A DNA stretch of 64,000 nucleotides from an uncultured delta proteobacterium (GTDB taxonomy: Bacteria > Desulfobacterota > Binatia > UBA9968): the NCBI GenBank assembly GCA_963727625.1, contig CAVSHR010000006.1, positions 256,001 through 320,000 of the forward strand. The letters run 5' to 3'. Below are positions 1 to 48,467 of the stretch, piece by piece (positions within the stretch are counted from its first letter, which is position 1; the number at the start of each line of letters is the position of its first letter). Under the pieces are notes generated by a model that worked only from the letters and a program-made list of their open reading frames with translations, was not told the origin of the DNA and ran no database searches. A program made the position numbers and the translations under genes.

Positions 1-877
1 CTACCAGCGAACCGGCCTGCAGCGCGCCTTGCGCCGGATGCTGCCCGAGAAACTACGCGACATGGACGCGCTCCTGCCGGTAATTCCAAGGCGCTTTTTC
101 ACGCCGAGGACGCCGGTCCCGCCGGCCATCGGCGAGCAGCGCGCCAAAGTCGCCATGCTCGACGGTTGCGTCATGCCGCTATTGTTCGGCGATGTGAACG
201 ATGCGACCGTGCGCGTGCTGCAGCGCAACGGCTGCGAAGTAATTTTTCCCGAAAAACAAACTTGCTGCGGCGCGCTCAACCTGCACAACGGCGAGACCGC
301 CGCGGCCAAACGGATGGCGCAGCGTAACATCGACGCATTTCTCGAGTCCGACGCGGACGCGATCATCGTCAACGCCGCCGGCTGCGGCGCGGCCATGAAG
401 GAATATGGCCACCTGCTGCGCGACGACCCGAAATATTCCGACAAGGCGGTGCGCTTCAGCGGGCGAGTTAAAGACGCCGGCGAATTTCTCGCCGATCTCG
501 GTCTCATCGGCAAACTCGGTTCCGTCGAGATGACCGTGACCTACCAGGATCCCTGTCATCTCGCCCACGGGCAGCGCATTCGCAGCCAGCCGCGCCAATT
601 GTTGCAGGCAATACCCGGCCTAAAGCTGGTAGAGATGGAGGGCGCCGATCGCTGCTGCGGCAGCGCGGGCATTTACAACCTGACTCATTCGGCCATGTCG
701 CAACACTTACTCGACGAAAAAATGCACACGATCGGCGCCACCTACGCCAGCGCCGTCGTTGCGCCCAACCCCGGCTGCATGCTGCAACTTCGCGCCGGCG
801 CGCGCCGTTCTGGCAATGAGCTGGAAGTTTATCATCTCATGGACCTGCTCGAGCGGGCCTACCGCGCCGCCGACTAG
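1..877 (+). CDS. glcF: Glycolate oxidase Fe-S subunit / CCG-domain Fe-S oxidoreductase, 5'-partial
   Basis: Frame is open from position 2. Two CCG domains (TCCGA, RCCGSAG) plus YQDPCHL and NPGC motifs. Directly upstream of a glcE-like gene. Confidence 0.85.
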   Translation, partial: YQRTGLQRALRRMLPEKLRDMDALLPVIPRRFFTPRTPVPPAIGEQRAKVAMLDGCVMPLLFGDVNDATVRVLQRNGCEVIFPEKQTCCGALNLHNGETAAAKRMAQRNIDAFLESDADAIIVNAAGCGAAMKEYGHLLRDDPKYSDKAVRFSGRVKDAGEFLADLGLIGKLGSVEMTVTYQDPCHLAHGQRIRSQPRQLLQAIPGLKLVEMEGADRCCGSAGIYNLTHSAMSQHLLDEKMHTIGATYASAVVAPNPGCMLQLRAGARRSGNELEVYHLMDLLERAYRAAD

Positions 878-5472: not shown

Positions 5473-5543
5473 AGTTTAAGGTTTGAGGTTCAAAGTTTGG
5501 CCTGATTCCTTGAATCCGGACCCTTGAACTTTGAACCTTGAAC
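5473..5543. repeat. Heptad-periodic hairpin (TTCAA/TTGAA type) between convergent genes
   Basis: gtttaag-gtttgag-gttcaaa-gttt ... ccttgaa-ctttgaa-ccttgaa. Confidence 0.65.
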
Positions 5544-15622: not shown

Positions 15623-21298
<5,676 letters not shown>

Positions 21299-22484: not shown

Positions 22485-22520
22485 TTGAACGATTTGAACG
22501 GCTTGAACTTTTTGAACCCA
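22485..22520. repeat. 9-mer tandem array (TTGAAC-nnn) x4
   Basis: ttgaacgat-ttgaacggc-ttgaacttt-ttgaaccca. Confidence 0.75.
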
Positions 22521-23895: not shown

Positions 23896-24756
23896 TTACT
23901 TTTTTCGTGCCACCAACGCCGCGATTTCCGGAGTTTGTAGTGCGTCTTTGAGCGCGGTCACCGTGCCGTTTCCTTGCAATTCCAACGCTAAGCGTCGCAC
24001 CGCGCCGATGGCGGCCTTGAGAAACGAAGAACCGTAGCTCACCCGCGCCACGCCGAGATCTTGCAACTCCCGGACGCTCGGCGATTGCGCGCCGGCGAGA
24101 ATGCTGATCGGCGCCTTAACCTCTTTGGCGATGCGCCCGATGATTTCGGCCGAGTGCAGGAACAAGTAAAAGATGCAGTCGCCTCCCGCCTCGGCGTAGG
24201 CGTTGCCGCGGCCGATCGCTTCGGCGAGCGCTTTTTTCGGATCGTCGGTGATGACGTGAAAAGCATCCACGCGCGCGTTTAAAAAAAAGTCGCTGCCGAT
24301 TTCGCGCTTGGTGTCCATGACGGCCTTGATCTTGCGCAGCTGTTCAGAAACTTCTACTAATCCGCCACGCCCCTTCACCGCGCCGTCTTCGAGGTTCATT
24401 CCGGCCACGCCGCGCGCCACCAGCGCGCGCACGGTTTCTCGAACGCCCTGCTCGTCGCCGTAGCCTCGTTCACCATCGGCGTTGAACGGCACGGTCACGG
24501 CGCCAGCGAAGGCGCCGCTGATTTCGATGAACTGCTCCCGGCTCATCACCTCGCCGTCGGGCAAACCCAACGATGCGGCGATGCCGCCGCTGGTGCCCTG
24601 AATCGCCTTGAACCCCAATTGCTCGAACAGCAGCGCGCTCAAGACATCATAAGCGCCGGGCATGACGAGAATCTCCGGCGCGCGGACGAGTTCTCTAAGC
24701 TTTCTGCTTTTCTGATTGGTAGCCGCGAGCACCGCGGCAGGAACAGGCTCCATCAT
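23896..24756 (-). CDS. Isocitrate lyase / PEP mutase family protein
   Basis: PGAYD, GLPDG, NADGERGYG, MNLED and NARVD motifs. GGAGG precedes ATG 24756. Confidence 0.85.
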   Translation of the reverse strand: MMEPVPAAVLAATNQKSRKLRELVRAPEILVMPGAYDVLSALLFEQLGFKAIQGTSGGIAASLGLPDGEVMSREQFIEISGAFAGAVTVPFNADGERGYGDEQGVRETVRALVARGVAGMNLEDGAVKGRGGLVEVSEQLRKIKAVMDTKREIGSDFFLNARVDAFHVITDDPKKALAEAIGRGNAYAEAGGDCIFYLFLHSAEIIGRIAKEVKAPISILAGAQSPSVRELQDLGVARVSYGSSFLKAAIGAVRRLALELQGNGTVTALKDALQTPEIAALVARKK

Positions 24757-39014: not shown

Positions 39015-39060
39015 TGTTCAAACGACTTGAACGTTTGGAACTATTTGAACGGTCTAAACC
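39015..39060. repeat. Degenerate 9-mer TTGAAC array between gyrB and gyrA
   Basis: gttcaaacgac-ttgaacgtt-tggaactat-ttgaacggt-ctaaacc. Confidence 0.6.
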
Positions 39061-42441: not shown

Positions 42442-42466
42442 ACCACAACCCCCGCGCTCTTTGGAC

Positions 42467-43342
42467 ATGGAACTATTCAAGCCCCTCTCTCCCGTTATTC
42501 CGGTATTTCTGTTGATCGGGTTGGGATTCGCTTTTGCCCACTGGAAAAAGATCAGCCTCACATCCGTAACCGAGATTATCGTTTACTTGGGCACGCCCTC
42601 CTTGGTGTTCGGGTCGCTTGCGAGCAAGCCGCTTTTTGCCGCCGATATCGCCGTATTGTTTTGCGGCATTTTCGTTATCTTCGCACTCGTCGGCTTGCTC
42701 GTGGGGGTGTATTTTTTTTGTTTTGGATTTGTCTCGCGCGGTTTCGCGCTTCCCTCACTGTTCATGAACGCTGGAAACATGGGCATTCCGCTGGCGTTGT
42801 TCGCATTCGGTCAAGCCGGTTTTCAGCGTGCAACGTTGATGTTCGTGATGCTCACATTTCTGCAATATTCGTTGGGCATTTATATCTTGAACGGGCGCGG
42901 CAACTGGGCGGAAATATTTCGCCTGCCTTTGATTTATGCGGCGATGGCGGGGCTCGCGGTCAATCTCGCCCAGGTCAAGATTCCCGAGCTGCTCATGCAA
43001 CCAATCGTGATGCTCGGCCAAGCAACGATCCCGATCATGCTCATCAGTCTCGGTTACCGCCTGCATCAAGTGGAATCCCTGCAGTGGGGACATGCGGTGG
43101 GCGGCGCGCTGGTCCGCATTCTGGGAGGCTTTACCGCCGCCAATGTCGCGGTGCTTTTGATCGGCGCCCAGGGCGTCAACCGCCAGGTCTTGCTGCTTTA
43201 CGGCGCCCTTCCCGCCGCCGTCATCAACTTCGTCTTGACCGAGAAGTATAAACAAGATCCGGCCTTGGCCGCGTCGATCGTCGTGATCAGCACATTTATC
43301 TCGGTTTTCACAACCCCGATCGTATTTTGGATTATCCTTTAA
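42467..43342 (+). CDS. AEC family (auxin efflux carrier-like) transporter
   Basis: MNAGNMGIPLALFAFG, IPIMLISLG and LPAAVINF motifs. Confidence 0.85.
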   Translation: MELFKPLSPVIPVFLLIGLGFAFAHWKKISLTSVTEIIVYLGTPSLVFGSLASKPLFAADIAVLFCGIFVIFALVGLLVGVYFFCFGFVSRGFALPSLFMNAGNMGIPLALFAFGQAGFQRATLMFVMLTFLQYSLGIYILNGRGNWAEIFRLPLIYAAMAGLAVNLAQVKIPELLMQPIVMLGQATIPIMLISLGYRLHQVESLQWGHAVGGALVRILGGFTAANVAVLLIGAQGVNRQVLLLYGALPAAVINFVLTEKYKQDPALAASIVVISTFISVFTTPIVFWIIL

Positions 43343-43424: not shown

Positions 43425-43443
43425 TCGCCTACATTAGTCCAAG

Positions 43444-43599
43444 GCTCTGGGATCAAAGGGAAGTCCGGTGCAAATCCGGCGCGGTCCCGCCACTGTGACG
43501 GCTACGAAAGCCGCAAGCAGCCACTGTCCTAAGCGTCGTTGAAGGATGGGAAGGCGCGGCGAGTAGAAAAAAGCCTAAGTCAGGAAACCTGCCCAGAGC
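43444..43599 (+). ncRNA. Cobalamin riboswitch 1 (upstream of tonB)
   Basis: AGGGAAGTCCGGTGCAAATCCGGCGCGGTCCCGCCACTGT, GCCACTG...GGGAAGG, B12 box AGTCAGGAAACCT, closing stem gctctggg/cccagagc. Confidence 0.93.
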
Positions 43600-43677
43600 G
43601 TAACGACCGGCCTCTCCGGAGAAGAGAGAAAGGTACCTTTACTTTCCCTTTGGGTTTGAGGCCGGCAGTATAAGGCT

Positions 43678-44439
43678 ATGCGATCGGCCGTATTTTTTAT
43701 TCTATCGTTGGCGTTGCATATCGGCGCACTGCTCTACCCGCTTTCTTTTGCCGTGCCGGCGCGGGAACGATTGATCCCCGTGACGATTGTCGCCGCGGAA
43801 CGAGCGCCGATCGGAGCGCTGGATGTTCTAAAGAGCGGCGCCGGGAAAGCTAGTGATAGTTTACAATCGGCCCCGCCGCGCCCGTTGGCGCAGCCAATTG
43901 CAAGAAGACTTTTCGATGATTTGCCGACGACGCCGGATCCCCCTTCCGAACTGGATGCCACAGCACCTAATGAAAGCCCGATCGCGCTCGTCAGCGAAGT
44001 GTCACAGGCCGCGAAAATCAACAGCCGTACGGTCTTCGGTTCGGCGCCAAACGCCTTGGCTCGCTACGGCGGAAATGTCGGAGGCTCAACGCAGGGTGGC
44101 GGAAGGGGAGCGGGCTCGGGAAGCGGCCGCGGTAAAGCCGCGGGTGGCATCGTCCTTAGCCAAGCCCGATTGAACGAAACGCCGCGGCCGGTATATCCGG
44201 AAAGCGCCCGGCGCGAGGGCCTGGAAGGACGGGTTTTGCTAAGGGTCCTAGTCGACGATCGAGGTCGTGCGAAAACCGTAGAAATAAACACAAGCTCTGG
44301 AAATGAAGTGCTGGACCGCGCCGCCGCCGAAGCGATAAAGCGCTGGCGTTTTTACCCGGCGCGCTACGGCGATCGCGCGGTTGAAAGTTGGGTTAAGATT
44401 CCGATCGAGTTCGCGCTGGCAAATGCCAACGCGCGATAG
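43678..44439 (+). CDS. tonB: Energy transducer TonB
   Basis: TM with SLALH, Pro/Gly-rich linker, TonB C-terminus YPESARREGLEGRV...SSG...LD.AA...WRF.P. Confidence 0.85.
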   Translation: MRSAVFFILSLALHIGALLYPLSFAVPARERLIPVTIVAAERAPIGALDVLKSGAGKASDSLQSAPPRPLAQPIARRLFDDLPTTPDPPSELDATAPNESPIALVSEVSQAAKINSRTVFGSAPNALARYGGNVGGSTQGGGRGAGSGSGRGKAAGGIVLSQARLNETPRPVYPESARREGLEGRVLLRVLVDDRGRAKTVEINTSSGNEVLDRAAAEAIKRWRFYPARYGDRAVESWVKIPIEFALANANAR

Positions 44440-44484
44440 TCATTCCAAGAAAGGAGGTTTACGAAGCAAGCAGCTATAATTAAC

Positions 44485-44816
44485 CGCAGGCGGATATAAG
44501 GGAAAGGGGTGACTCCGTAAAGGATAAAGGCAGAAGGCGAAAGGATGGAAAATGATTTCATCCTTTATCCCTTATTCTTCATCCTTTCCGGAAATTCCCC
44601 TGCTGCCCCGCAACTGTAAGAGCTACGAAAGCCGCAGAACACTGCCACTGCTCAAATTGATTTGCGAATTTGGGTTTTTGAATTTGGCCTCAATCCAAAA
44701 TCGGCAATCTGAAATCCAAAATCGACGGGTGGGAAGGCGCGGCAAGTAGGTTTGAAGCTCAAGCCAGGAGACCTATCCGGTCTGCGCCAACGACTCCCCT
44801 TTCGCGGGAAAAGGAG
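44485..44816 (+). ncRNA. Cobalamin riboswitch 2 (upstream of btuB) with two inserted hairpins and an RBS-sequestering stem
   Basis: AGGGAAAGGGGTGA[insert]AATTCCCCTGCTGCCCCGCAACTGT, GCCACTG[insert]GGGAAGG, AGCCAGGAGACCT. Downstream stem ctcccctttc-gcggg-aaaaggag covers the SD. Confidence 0.88.
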
Positions 44817-44821
44817 ATTTT

Positions 44822-46894
44822 ATGCGGTTCGGTTTTGTCTTTTTGGTCTTAGTTCTGTTGGCGCCCGTCGAACTGCGCGGCGCCGAAACACCTGAAGTTA
44901 CGTTTCCGACGGTTTTCGTAAATTCCACACGTCTGCGCGACGTCGAACAGCCGGAAACCCAGGTGCCCGGCAAGGTCATCGTTCTCACCGCCGATGACAT
45001 CGAAAAATCGGGCGCCAAGACCGTTCAGGAAGTTCTGCAATACCAAACCGGCATCGTGCTCTACGATCCGATCGGCAACGAGTTTCAACAGACCATCGAT
45101 TTGCGCGGCTTTAACGGCCAGCCGGTGACCTCCACCAGCGTATTCGTCGACGGCGTGCGCATCAACGAGCCCGATTTCAACACGATCAATTTCGATTTAG
45201 TTCCTGCCGAGGATATCGAGCGCATTGAGATCATGCCAGGCACGGCGACGGTCTTCGGCCGCAACGCCCTCGGCGGCGTAATCAACATCACGACCAAACG
45301 CGGGCGACGCGACCGGCCGCATGTCGGAATCGATATCGGCAGCGGCAGCTACGCGCGGCAGAGGTATTCATTCACTACCGACGGTCCTTTGCCGCTGGCG
45401 AATCTAGACTATTACTTCGGTGTGACGCGCGAGTTGAGCAATGGCTTCAGGGAGGAAAACGGCGACCGCATGGCCGGAGCGAGAATTACCCGGCTGGCGG
45501 CGAAACTTGGCTACCGCCTCGGCGACGCCACCGATGCGACGCTGTCGTATACCCATGTGCTGGATCATCTCAGCCAAGCCGGTTCGTTGCCGGCCAGCCG
45601 GCTCCGTATCGACCGCAACGACAATCTCACGCCCGGAGATGTTTCGGCGAGCAACCTCGATCTGGTTGTCCTGAACGTTCGGCAAAAACTGCCCGTCGGC
45701 TTTTCCCTCGCCTTAAACGGCTTCGTTCGTAATAATCAACAAAAGCTTTTTGTCAGAGGCGTGACCACCGAGTCGACGCTGCGCACCGATATTGTATCCG
45801 GCGGCACGACGGCTCAGCTAACCCATGAGGGAAATATCTTGCGCCGAAGAAACCTCGCCACCGCCGGTTTCGAGTTCAGCCGTAACCAATTCGACATCCA
45901 AAACTCCGGAGTTTTTTTTCCAGCCTTTTCATTCCTGTCACGCCAAGCCACGGCAGACAATGTTCTGGGCGCTTACCTCACCGATAATTTTAATCTCTTC
46001 GAATCGTTGGTGCTCAATGCCGGCTTTCGCTACGATTGGGATAGCCTCGATTTCACCGACAAGCTCGATTCGAGTTTGGATGGCAAAATCAAGTTCAGCC
46101 GTTTCAGTCCTAAAGCGGGCCTGGTCTATTCTCCGGTCAAGAATTGGCAAGCCTCCTTCAGCTATTCCGAAGGGATTCGCATCCCGACGGTAACCGAAAT
46201 ATTTGCCCAAGGCCCCTTCGGCTCGAACCCCGATCTGGTGCCTATGAAAAGCCGCAACTTCGAACTCGGCGTCAAAGGGCGACCGACCGACTGGCTAGAA
46301 GCTTCGCTGGCGGTTTTTTACATGCCGGTGCGCGACGAGATCTTTTTTATCGCTACCAATCCGCTCGACCCCTTTTCGGGCCGCAACGAGAACATCGATA
46401 AGACTCTGCGCAGAGGCATCGAGCTCGCGCTCAACGCCCGCTACGACAAGTGGCTCGACGGTTTTATCAACTATACTTTTACGAAGGCGACTTTCGACGG
46501 CGATTTCTTCGTGCCGGGAATCGATTTTCTCGATCCGCCGCGCTTGGTCAAAAAAGGCGACGAGCTGCCCCTGGTGCCGCGCCACCGGATCGGAGTGGGC
46601 ATCAATACCAGGCCCTTAGCAGGGCTGAAGCTCTCGCTCTTCGGTAGCTACGTCGGCGAACAGTTTCAGCTGCGCGACGAGCCCAATCAGGCCAAGAAAC
46701 TGGCGAGTTATTTTGTTTTGAACAGCCGGATCGCCTATCAATGGCGCGAATGGACCGCCCACGTCGAGCTCAACAATCTCACCGACCGCAAGTATTCGAC
46801 TTCGGGGATTCTCGTCGGCGCGCCTTTCAATGAGTCCTTCCGCGTTCCAGCGCCGGGATTTAATCTATTCGCGGGGTTGTCGTTTAAGTATTGA
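44822..46894 (+). CDS. btuB: TonB-dependent receptor, probable corrinoid importer
   Basis: Signal peptide, TonB-box-like TVFVNS, plug IERIEIMPG...ALGGVINITT, NNLTDRKY, aromatic C-terminus, and a B12 riboswitch upstream. Confidence 0.8.
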   Translation: MRFGFVFLVLVLLAPVELRGAETPEVTFPTVFVNSTRLRDVEQPETQVPGKVIVLTADDIEKSGAKTVQEVLQYQTGIVLYDPIGNEFQQTIDLRGFNGQPVTSTSVFVDGVRINEPDFNTINFDLVPAEDIERIEIMPGTATVFGRNALGGVINITTKRGRRDRPHVGIDIGSGSYARQRYSFTTDGPLPLANLDYYFGVTRELSNGFREENGDRMAGARITRLAAKLGYRLGDATDATLSYTHVLDHLSQAGSLPASRLRIDRNDNLTPGDVSASNLDLVVLNVRQKLPVGFSLALNGFVRNNQQKLFVRGVTTESTLRTDIVSGGTTAQLTHEGNILRRRNLATAGFEFSRNQFDIQNSGVFFPAFSFLSRQATADNVLGAYLTDNFNLFESLVLNAGFRYDWDSLDFTDKLDSSLDGKIKFSRFSPKAGLVYSPVKNWQASFSYSEGIRIPTVTEIFAQGPFGSNPDLVPMKSRNFELGVKGRPTDWLEASLAVFYMPVRDEIFFIATNPLDPFSGRNENIDKTLRRGIELALNARYDKWLDGFINYTFTKATFDGDFFVPGIDFLDPPRLVKKGDELPLVPRHRIGVGINTRPLAGLKLSLFGSYVGEQFQLRDEPNQAKKLASYFVLNSRIAYQWREWTAHVELNNLTDRKYSTSGILVGAPFNESFRVPAPGFNLFAGLSFKY

Positions 46895-46904
46895 GGGAAA
46901 GCCC

Positions 46905-48467
46905 ATGGCCAAAGCGATCATGGTGATGGGGACGGCGTCCGATGTCGGCAAGAGCGTCATCGCCGCGGGTCTGTGCCGTCTGCTTTACCGCAAGGGTATT
47001 CACGTCGCGCCATTCAAGGCGCAGAACATGTCGCTCAACTCCTTTGTTACCCTTGACGGCGGCGAGATGGGACGCGCCCAGGTGCTCCAGGCCGAGGCCT
47101 GCGGCCTCTCGCCTCACGTCGACATGAATCCGATCTTGCTCAAGCCTGAGAGCGACACCTGCTCGCAAGTCATCGTGCATGGAAAAGTTTGGGCCAAGCA
47201 TGACGCGAGAAAGTATTTCGCGCGCCATGAGGAATTGGTAGGATTTATCGAAGCAAGTTACCGGCGGCTCGCACGCGCTCATGAAGTGATAGTTATCGAA
47301 GGCGCCGGCAGTGCCGCGGAAGTCAATCTGCGCGATAAGGATCTGGTAAACTGGCCCGTGGCCGAGATGGCGAACGCGGACGTGCTCCTGGTCGCTGACA
47401 TCGACCGCGGCGGCGTGTTCGCCCAAGTGATCGGCACCTTGGACCTGCTCGGGCCGGCCGAGCGACGCCGTGTGGTTGGCGTCATCATCAATAAGTTCCG
47501 TGGCGATCGTTCATTATTCGCTGACGGCGTCGTCTTTCTGGAAAATCGCACGGGACTGCCAATCATCGGAGTGATCCCGTTCGACCGCGATCTAAGGCTC
47601 GATCAGGAAGACAGTTTGGAGATCGAGCGCTACCGCCACACGCCGTTTACCGCGAATACGGTGAACATCGCCGTCGTGTTACTGCCGCATATGAGCAACT
47701 TCACCGACTTCAACGCGCTGGCGGCGGAACCGGATGTCGCACTGCGCTACGTCGCGGCGCCGTCGGAGCTGCGCGGGACCGATGCGGTTATTTTACCGGG
47801 GAGCAAGAATACCATCGCGAATCTCGATGATTTGCTCGATCGGGGATTCGACGCGGCCCTCGACGATCATCTCAAAGCAGGCGGCGAGCTCGCCGGGATC
47901 TGCGCCGGCTTGCAAATGCTCGGACGCGCCATCGCCGATCCGCATGGCGTCGAGAGCGGCGGAGAACGGCGCGCCCTGGGTTTGCTTGATGTGATCACGG
48001 AGCTCGCCGAGACCAAGCACACCGCGCAGGTCGTGGCCCGCCCGATCAATGAATTCGTCTCAGGCGCTGGTAACGTCAGGGGCTACGAAATCCACATGGG
48101 ACGAACTGAAAGAGGAGCCGATTCCCCTTGTTTTGAGATTCTCCAACGCACTGGCAGCACAAAAGAATTTGCTAACGTGGCCAATGAGCTTCTTGACGGG
48201 GCGGTTAGCGGCAACGGACTGGTCTGGGGCACTTATATCCACGGCGTTTTCGACAGTCCGGGTTTTCGTCGCCAATGGTTGAATCGGATTCGCGCGCGAA
48301 AGGTTCTCGAACCGCTCGCCGTCAGCGTGTCGGAAAGGGTCAGCGCGCGGCTCACGGCCACCATTGACCGTTGGGCGAATCATCTCGAGCGCCACCTAAA
48401 CATGACGCCGATTCTTTCCGGCATCGCCGCCGCGCATCCGTGTAGCGCCGCTGCGACTGATTTGTAA
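46905..48467 (+). CDS. cobQ: Cobyric acid synthase
   Basis: GTASDVGKS, PFKAQNMSLNS, MNPILLKP, EGAGS, SNFTDF, GICAGLQMLG and TYIHG motifs. Confidence 0.95.
   Translation: MAKAIMVMGTASDVGKSVIAAGLCRLLYRKGIHVAPFKAQNMSLNSFVTLDGGEMGRAQVLQAEACGLSPHVDMNPILLKPESDTCSQVIVHGKVWAKHDARKYFARHEELVGFIEASYRRLARAHEVIVIEGAGSAAEVNLRDKDLVNWPVAEMANADVLLVADIDRGGVFAQVIGTLDLLGPAERRRVVGVIINKFRGDRSLFADGVVFLENRTGLPIIGVIPFDRDLRLDQEDSLEIERYRHTPFTANTVNIAVVLLPHMSNFTDFNALAAEPDVALRYVAAPSELRGTDAVILPGSKNTIANLDDLLDRGFDAALDDHLKAGGELAGICAGLQMLGRAIADPHGVESGGERRALGLLDVITELAETKHTAQVVARPINEFVSGAGNVRGYEIHMGRTERGADSPCFEILQRTGSTKEFANVANELLDGAVSGNGLVWGTYIHGVFDSPGFRRQWLNRIRARKVLEPLAVSVSERVSARLTATIDRWANHLERHLNMTPILSGIAAAHPCSAAATDL

Follow-up and report, generated by a model that had tools for sequence, protein, structure and literature searches.

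Locus organisation and identity of the second riboswitch

The window (the whole stretch of 64,000 nucleotides that was analysed) carries, in order, a CobS gene, a transport gene of family PF03547, a first cobalamin riboswitch, a gene with a TonB C-terminal domain, a second cobalamin riboswitch, a btuB-like receptor gene and a CobQ/CobB-like open reading frame. The second switch, riboswitch 2, therefore sits in a cobalamin gene context, with the receptor and then the CobQ/CobB-like gene downstream and CobS upstream. The features of the locus are as follows, in window coordinates and with the strand where it was assigned.

42461-43342: membrane-transport protein gene (PF03547)
43432..43610, plus strand: riboswitch 1, cobalamin aptamer with plain loops (RF00174, 89.7 bits, model positions 1-189)
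43678..44439, plus strand: TonB C-terminal-domain protein gene, 253 aa (PF03544 TonB_C, E 8.8e-24)
44476..44794, plus strand: riboswitch 2 aptamer, both inserts included (RF00174, 63.8 bits, E 1.9e-13, model positions 1-189)
44505..44601, plus strand: P4 stem AGGGG/CCCCU with split T-loop (sequence, Rfam alignment)
44514..44592, plus strand: insert 1, a 79-nt hairpin of GGATAAA/GGCAGAA-type heptads and their complements (fold, lag-7 identity)
44606..44611, plus strand: L5 loop, C-CCCGC region, partner of the downstream GCGGG (Rfam alignment, sequence)
within 44651..44730, plus strand: insert 2, a heptad hairpin of about 70 nt, GGATTTT/TCCAAAA family, forming a P6 extension (Rfam, fold)
44762..44773, plus strand: B12-box core AGCCAGGAGACC (sequence, Rfam alignment)
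44794..44816, plus strand: expression-platform hairpin CUCC...GGAG (fold)
44822..46894, plus strand: TonB-dependent outer-membrane receptor gene, 690 aa, btuB-like (PF07715 Plug, PF00593 barrel)
46830-48467: CobQ/CobB-like open reading frame, next after the receptor gene (PF07685 and PF01656)

Riboswitch 1 precedes the tonB-like gene and has a canonical L4 loop of 7 nt. Riboswitch 2 aligns to the Rfam covariance model RF00174 over all 189 positions, and the architecture of its aptamer is that of a cobalamin switch of the AdoCbl type. The alignment places one insert in the L4 loop and another, of 71 nt, in the hairpin loop 3' of GCCACUG. The core motifs GGGAA, GGUG..CC, CCCGCAACUG, GCCACUG, GGGAAGG and the B12 box are all present, as an earlier note made from the letters alone had maintained. 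That note also supposed that the inserts would hide the switch from covariance searches, which is refuted by a score of 63.8 bits against a cut-off of 31.5.

Complementarity predicts an L5-L13 kissing loop between CCCGC (44607-44611) and GCGGG (44804-44808). The latter lies in the loop region of the expression-platform hairpin, the 3' strand of which carries a Shine-Dalgarno GGAG (44813-44816) six bases 5' of the ATG at 44822. Both the kissing-loop match and the stem sequestering the Shine-Dalgarno had been noticed previously; they are conserved in the aligned orthologues, among which the platform hairpin is nearly invariant in sequence. An L4 T-loop and an L5-L13 kissing loop are present in the solved structures treated in the portion of PMC7367189 cited here and, as far as sequence can indicate, the layout of riboswitch 2 is that of the translational cobalamin switches with such a kissing loop (PMC7367189). 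It is, in short, a functional-looking cobalamin riboswitch whose permissive loops are filled by heptad-repeat palindromes.

Anatomy of the two inserted hairpins

The strands of P4, AGGGG (44505-44509) and CCCCU (44597-44601), enclose a loop consisting of UGA-C (44510-44513), the first hairpin (44514-44592) and AAUU (44593-44596). This is an interrupted T-loop, GG-U-G-A-[C + helix]-A-A-UU-CC, where empty orthologues read UGAAAUU and similar. The hairpin has a predicted folding energy of -31.8 kcal/mol (z -4.96), which none of 200 shuffled sequences equalled, and a lag-7 identity of 0.64 in each arm, reached by 6 and 39 of 5000 shuffles respectively. The second insert lengthens the stem between GCCACUG (44644-44650) and GGGAAGG (44731-44737). 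Its fold (-20 kcal/mol, z -0.87) was matched by 36 of 200 shuffles, and energy alone does not set it apart from shuffled sequence. Its lag-7 identities are 0.50 in the left arm and 0.65 in the right, values reached by 173 and 0 of 5000 shuffles, and in the left arm the periodicity at lag 8 equals that at lag 7. Both hairpins end in loops of 5-7 nt and both fold locally within the minimum-energy fold of the full-length RNA.

The placement of inserts by Rfam, the folds and the lag-7 identities confirm that there are two heptad-repeat hairpins, one of them within the L4 T-loop; the letters and coordinates originally reported for them, within 44485-44816, were correct. Tandem Repeats Finder (minimum score 30) reported neither array, and the repeats are therefore imperfect. 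For insert 1 the best match elsewhere in the genome covers only 25 nt (92%, E 0.022), which is no close copy. This insert looks vertically inherited rather than recently inserted. It is orthologous across at least 11 species, and when 11 such helices were aligned, both sides had changed in 6 of 31 pairs. Insert 2 has relatives elsewhere in the genome, in the form of partial matches of 30-36 nt with 88-94% identity, the best being 36 nt at 94%.

Gain, loss and replacement among orthologous switches

RF00174 was searched against 61 genomes of the same order, and three insertion sites were measured in the switch pairs that were fetched. Matches occurred in 56 of the 61 genomes, mostly as a tandem pair about 1.0-1.2 kb apart, and the arrangement of switch 1, tonB-like gene, switch 2 and btuB-like receptor is kept across all three families of the order. 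In switch 1 the L4 loop had 7 nt in each of the 34 copies measured. In switch 2 a helix of about 48 to 129 nt occupied L4 in all 23 genomes of the genus from which it was recovered (in three others it ended at a contig edge and five gave no match). The helix is also found in G032 and G033, and G035 (unpublished) has a 16-nt hairpin at L4. Empty sites, which the earlier note had suggested looking for in relatives, do exist: the site is vacant in three sister genera, and the plain 7-nt loop was seen in G031, G034, G036, four genomes of family f2 and the f3 loci examined. The flanks UGA-C...G-AAU are conserved in occupied switches, which places the point of interruption between nucleotides three and four of the T-loop.

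The content of L4 falls into two classes: helices built wholly of heptads of the GGATAAA/GGCAGAA type, as in riboswitch 2 (44476-44794), and helices whose basal stem is rich in G+C and whose apex may or may not carry GGATTTT/TCCAAAA heptads. In a tree of the C-terminal 130 residues of TonB (31 rows; G018, G027, G029 and G039 were left out because of problems with the reading frame, and the G032 locus lacks a tonB), the genomes with an occupied L4 form one clade (97/92), inside which the two content classes are interleaved. G005 (unpublished), for example, belongs to the G+C-stem class and is the sister of the present genome, G000. Three of these loci, L028 (G018), L047 (G027) and L049 (G029), have a tonB-like frame that is apparently shifted near its 3' end, whether through faulty assembly or a true frameshift.

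At the second site, 11 of the 22 measured genus orthologues are long (73-102 nt) and 11 are short (16-21 nt), and the supported pair G025/G030 is divided between short in G025 and long in G030; at least three repeat families occur there, TCCAAAA, GTTCAA and, in f2, TTCGTTA. A third site, between GGGAAGGC and the B12 box, holds GATCGTG/CACGA hairpins of about 77 nt in four genomes, at loci L032 (G025), L043 (G021), L053 (G034) and L054 (G035, unpublished). Throughout this turnover the core motifs, kissing-loop complement and Shine-Dalgarno hairpin are conserved across more than 20 insert-bearing species. Switches with inserts reach 46.5-78 bits in the genus, whereas the two sister-genus orthologues without a long insert reach 93.6 (G031) and 91.1 (G036). 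The comparison of scores with and without inserts that the earlier note proposed thus finds, in natural orthologues, that inserts do lower the score and that it still stays above the cut-off. The lower score of riboswitch 2 arises because insert states cost bits, and not from lost core positions.

Similar or identical repeats also recur at different sites. In G026 the same hairpin is present in both switches (84% identity), and in G035 (unpublished) the two third-site hairpins, one in each switch, share 95% identity, suggesting either gene conversion between the switches or parallel insertion. One 33-mer is shared without a mismatch by switch 1 of G031 and switch 2 of G041, two genomes from different families, and it recurs with at most 2 mismatches at four other intergenic sites, occurring in 6 of the 61 genomes in all; a search around those four copies found no gene of the PF05635 type. 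From these cases, together with the replacement of one repeat family by another at a single site and the G025/G030 pair, we infer exchange between loci.

The helices were also searched for signs of selection at the RNA level, in the form of G-U pairs and strand asymmetry, and none was seen. At L4 the plus strand was the more stable in 10 of 20 cases, with G-U counts of 46 and 48, and at the second site in 11 of 20, with G-U counts of 74 and 57. Such an absence of strand bias fits DNA palindromes rather than selection on the RNA.

The L4 site in other bacteria

The P4 loop of AdoCbl riboswitches was recognised as a T-loop by Barrick and Breaker 2007 (PMC2258182), who, in the portion cited here, describe a helix as an unconserved optional domain at a fixed position of the GNR triloop, that is, a permissive L4 site. 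Riboswitch 2 agrees with that description in RNA family, loop and position within the triloop, and in its flanks, with two closing G-C pairs, U...A and two bulged 3' nucleotides. It differs in matters that this portion of PMC2258182 does not treat, namely the repeat content of the helix, its source and its turnover between species. The earlier note had allowed that its reading would fail if such L4 extensions proved to be common already in the Rfam seed. A helix inside the L4 T-loop is indeed not new, and by that measure this part of the note's reading falls: the same position was described in 2007 (in the cited portion of PMC2258182), and we have at least 115 further valid cases.

These cases come from a scan of one genome per species for switches in which GGUG and the 3' strand of P4 are separated by 56-86 nt. 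At least 119 loci were found and, among the matches listed, the P4 stem comprises 4 bp or more in 115; loci L103, L111, L161 and L169 were mis-anchored and are not valid inserts. All 20 of the loci tested among the matches listed are RF00174 matches above the cut-off, at 40-126 bits, and since genus orthologues likewise reach at least 46.5 bits, the supposition that inserts hide switches in general fails too. Among the 115 listed cases, UG is followed by A in 90 and by C in 21, with AAAU and AAUU the most frequent flanks on the 3' side. We determined the best period between 4 and 11 for the 109 distinct valid inserts among the matches listed. It was 7 in 73 of these inserts (56-86 nt), distributed by taxonomic label, again among the matches listed, as follows.

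Bacteroidota (mostly Flavobacteriaceae): 63 of 79 with period 7
Binatia or delta proteobacterium: 9 of 11
Alphaproteobacteria: 1 of 11
Betaproteobacteria: 0 of 4
Other: 0 of 4

Heptad L4 helices thus occur in two unrelated lineages, labelled Bacteroidota and Binatia, and the alpha- and betaproteobacterial helices among the matches listed are G+C-rich and aperiodic. In the open-access literature that was searched, we found no paper on heptad repeats inside riboswitch loops.

Two loci of the scan deserve separate mention. L092, from a record titled Rhizobium sp., has an A+T-rich heptad helix of the Flavobacterium type, and a binning error is possible. At L091 a Flavo-1 RNA (RF01705, 54.2 bits; 481-624, minus strand) lies directly upstream of a Flavobacterium cobalamin riboswitch; its variable interior of 83 nt is not built of heptads.

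Short-period repeats and PF05635 genes in the genome

Arrays of short period were counted across the genome, 16 or more matches being required in a window of 21 nt, with the following numbers.

Period 5: 11 arrays
Period 7: 108 arrays
Period 8: 60 arrays
Period 10: 5 arrays
Period 11: 12 arrays

Periods 7 and 8 are therefore enriched over 5, 10 and 11 (counts for periods 6 and 9 are inflated by coding sequence), and many families of repeat unit coexist in the genome. The genome also has 11 matches to PF05635, the '23S rRNA intervening-sequence protein', and inverted arms of short period flank at least 7 of the 11 genes. GGATTTT/TCCAAAA arms surround one such gene (C10:23620-23650 and 24110-24140), and GTTCAA arms another (C4:373234-373753). 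These arm families are shared with the switches, and the repeat families in the riboswitch loops are therefore the families that wrap PF05635 genes. A tblastn search with 10 of the 11 genomic PF05635 matches as queries found no PF05635 gene in the riboswitch loci L001-L189.

Other structured RNAs examined in the lineage are free of such inserts. This genome has none in its RNase P RNA (368 nt), tmRNA (353 nt) or TPP riboswitch (111 nt), and RNase P RNA measures 362-381 nt across 58 relatives except in family f2 and in G024, where the match is partial (305 nt, model positions 12-320). In f2 it reaches 407-465 nt through a P12 extension of 37-101 nt (L206-L210, from G037, G039, G041, G045 and G043), with a lag-7 identity of 0.17-0.27, which is not heptad-like. 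General entry of the repeats into structured RNAs is consequently not supported in this lineage. The earlier proposal that repeat elements insert into RNA at tolerated positions stands in so far as these sites do tolerate an extra helix, which comparison finds gained, lost and replaced. Its likening of the repeats to RNA-level inteins, with excision from the transcript, found no support.

Origin and persistence of the hairpins

As a riboswitch this one is unremarkable, and its L4 site was already known to admit a helix. The novelty lies in the material filling the loops: its nature, its recurrence, its turnover and its tie to PF05635 cassettes. We consider it probable that riboswitch 2 is a working AdoCbl-type switch, the loops of which are filled by palindromic heptad hairpins that recombine and are tolerated, being passengers as far as sensing is concerned. 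The switch is predicted to repress translation of the btuB-like receptor and the cobalamin-salvage operon, acting through the L5-L13 kissing loop and the hairpin that would hide the Shine-Dalgarno. Two loops that point outwards are filled by heptad palindromes, one in the L4 T-loop and one at the apex of the P6 extension. These hairpins belong to the genome-wide families of short-period repeats that also form the arms around PF05635 genes, and would behave as DNA-level elements, exchanged or re-seeded between loci, persisting only where the extra helix points into solvent without disturbing the fold. We further propose a ratchet at L4. Once a helix is inside the T-loop, only changes at its tip would be harmless, and the site would therefore stay occupied while its content turns over.

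The main alternative is that the loops grew in situ without any mobility, slippage favouring 7-nt units having expanded the loop and template switching having copied changes across the arms. In the portion of PMC4679880 cited here, heptanucleotide repeats are reported to be, in most bacterial genomes, the commonest of the long simple repeats, and a polymerase-slippage model with a 7-nt footprint is proposed (both from Mrazek 2007 via PMC4679880). Unit numbers that vary between arms and between species would agree with such growth, as would the history of insert 1, which is without a close copy in the genome and orthologous over its 11 or more species with both sides changed in 6 of 31 pairs; both strands, moreover, fold equally well. 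We nevertheless think growth in place rather unlikely. Against it speak the same repeat families at unrelated loci and at different riboswitch sites, three families at one site in related genomes, the short ancestral hairpin kept by G025 where G030 has a long one, and the 33 nt that G031 (switch 1) and G041 (switch 2) have in common.

A bolder version of mobility would make the heptad hairpins the gene-less form of a widespread cassette, in which PF05635 four-helix-bundle genes are wrapped in mirror-image 7-nt arrays. Such cassettes would home or recombine into the apical loops of existing hairpins, entering the split T-loop of cobalamin riboswitches repeatedly and in two or more phyla, and the long helix could be cut as rRNA intervening sequences are, to yield a two-piece riboswitch. 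We regard this as doubtful, about on a level with growth in situ.

It is less likely again that the helices are themselves functional, whether as sites for RNase III or other binding proteins that set leader stability or as folding aids needed by the T-loop. Occupation of L4 in 23 of 23 genus orthologues with conserved UGA-C...G-AAU flanks could be read in this way, as could the retention of pairing through changes on both sides (6 of 31 pairs) and the recurrence of heptad L4 helices in two unrelated lineages among the matches listed. The 23S rRNA intervening sequences, which are long hairpins cut by RNase III, offer a precedent. But the sequence of the helix is replaced between close relatives; the sister genera, f2 and f3 run the same operon with a plain 7-nt loop; the transcribed strand shows no excess of G-U pairs; and hairpin 2 is no more stable than shuffled sequence. 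Finally, that the inserts have disabled the aptamer and left a decaying relic is hardly credible, since the deficit of about 27-30 bits (63.8 against 93.6 in G031 and 91.1 in G036) is the cost of insert states over intact core positions, all 189 model positions align, and the core motifs, kissing-loop complement and Shine-Dalgarno hairpin persist in more than 20 insert-bearing species.

The conserved aptamer serves as a fixed frame in which heptad hairpins can be watched arriving, swapping and vanishing between closely related species, and the pattern is seen independently in Flavobacteriaceae. Where the excess of 7-nt repeats long noted in bacteria comes from, how it behaves and how it is linked to PF05635 genes become testable questions through the many natural pairs of switches with and without inserts, some of them in cultivable Flavobacterium strains. 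For annotation, the rule is that RF00174 matches with long inserts at the three positions lose about 25-30 bits and are still detected.

Comparison with known repeat systems

STRR sequences are specific heptad units of heterocyst-forming cyanobacteria. The resemblance to riboswitch 2 lies in tandem 7-nt repeats within a helix of a structured, functional RNA, and tandem heptanucleotides are indeed present here, with lag-7 identities of 0.50-0.65 over the four insert arms. The RNA, the phylum and the repeat units are all different, and RNase P RNA in the lineage of riboswitch 2 has no heptad insert. The inserts were rejected as STRR on their units (GGATAAA/GGCAGAA and GGATTTT/TCCAAAA) and on their source, records with this type of insert being titled, among the matches listed, Candidatus Binatia or uncultured delta proteobacterium.

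The 23S rRNA intervening sequences that carry a PF05635 reading frame are likewise long hairpins in apical loops of a structured RNA, and the PF05635 cassettes of this genome have mirror-image arms of short period from the same repeat families. The riboswitch inserts differ in having no reading frame. They are not ORF-bearing cassettes, their hairpin loops being only 5-7 nt and containing no PF05635 gene.

Mobile elements of the MITE or REP type (REP/REPIN, Correia, RPE) are similarly short, self-complementary, dispersed and tolerated in functional sequences. To our knowledge, an internal 7-nt periodicity is not characteristic of the REP/REPIN, Correia and RPE families. A non-exhaustive search found no element ends, target duplications or set of near-identical copies for the inserts, and this identity was rejected, copies of insert 1 being at most 25 nt and matches to insert 2 being 30-36 nt at 88-94%.

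The TAACTGA heptamer repeats of Beggiatoaceae, Cyanobacteria and Bacteroidetes, as presented in the portion of PMC4679880 cited here, share the 7-nt unit and an intergenic or 5'-leader location, and they resemble the single arrays that lie just upstream of start codons in the present genome. They are direct arrays of a single unit (same portion of PMC4679880), whereas the riboswitch inserts are mirror-image arrays that form hairpins, come from many unit families and lie inside an aptamer.

Other short-period arrays

Several further arrays were observed. Single heptad arrays of TCCAAAA and related units end a few bases 5' of start codons at C5:716503-716541 and C4:591738-591777 of G000 and at L213. 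In the window, a repeat hairpin of the GTTCAA family lies at 5474-5543, and single arrays of this family, with periods of 8-9, lie at 18420-18445, 22485-22517 and 39021-39051. On contig C11 of G000, five PF05635 genes are clustered among heptad arrays at about 200-216 kb and 280-285 kb, the arrays reaching up to about 100 nt each and being built of units such as GCTGACC, GGCATAG and GGTCGTC.
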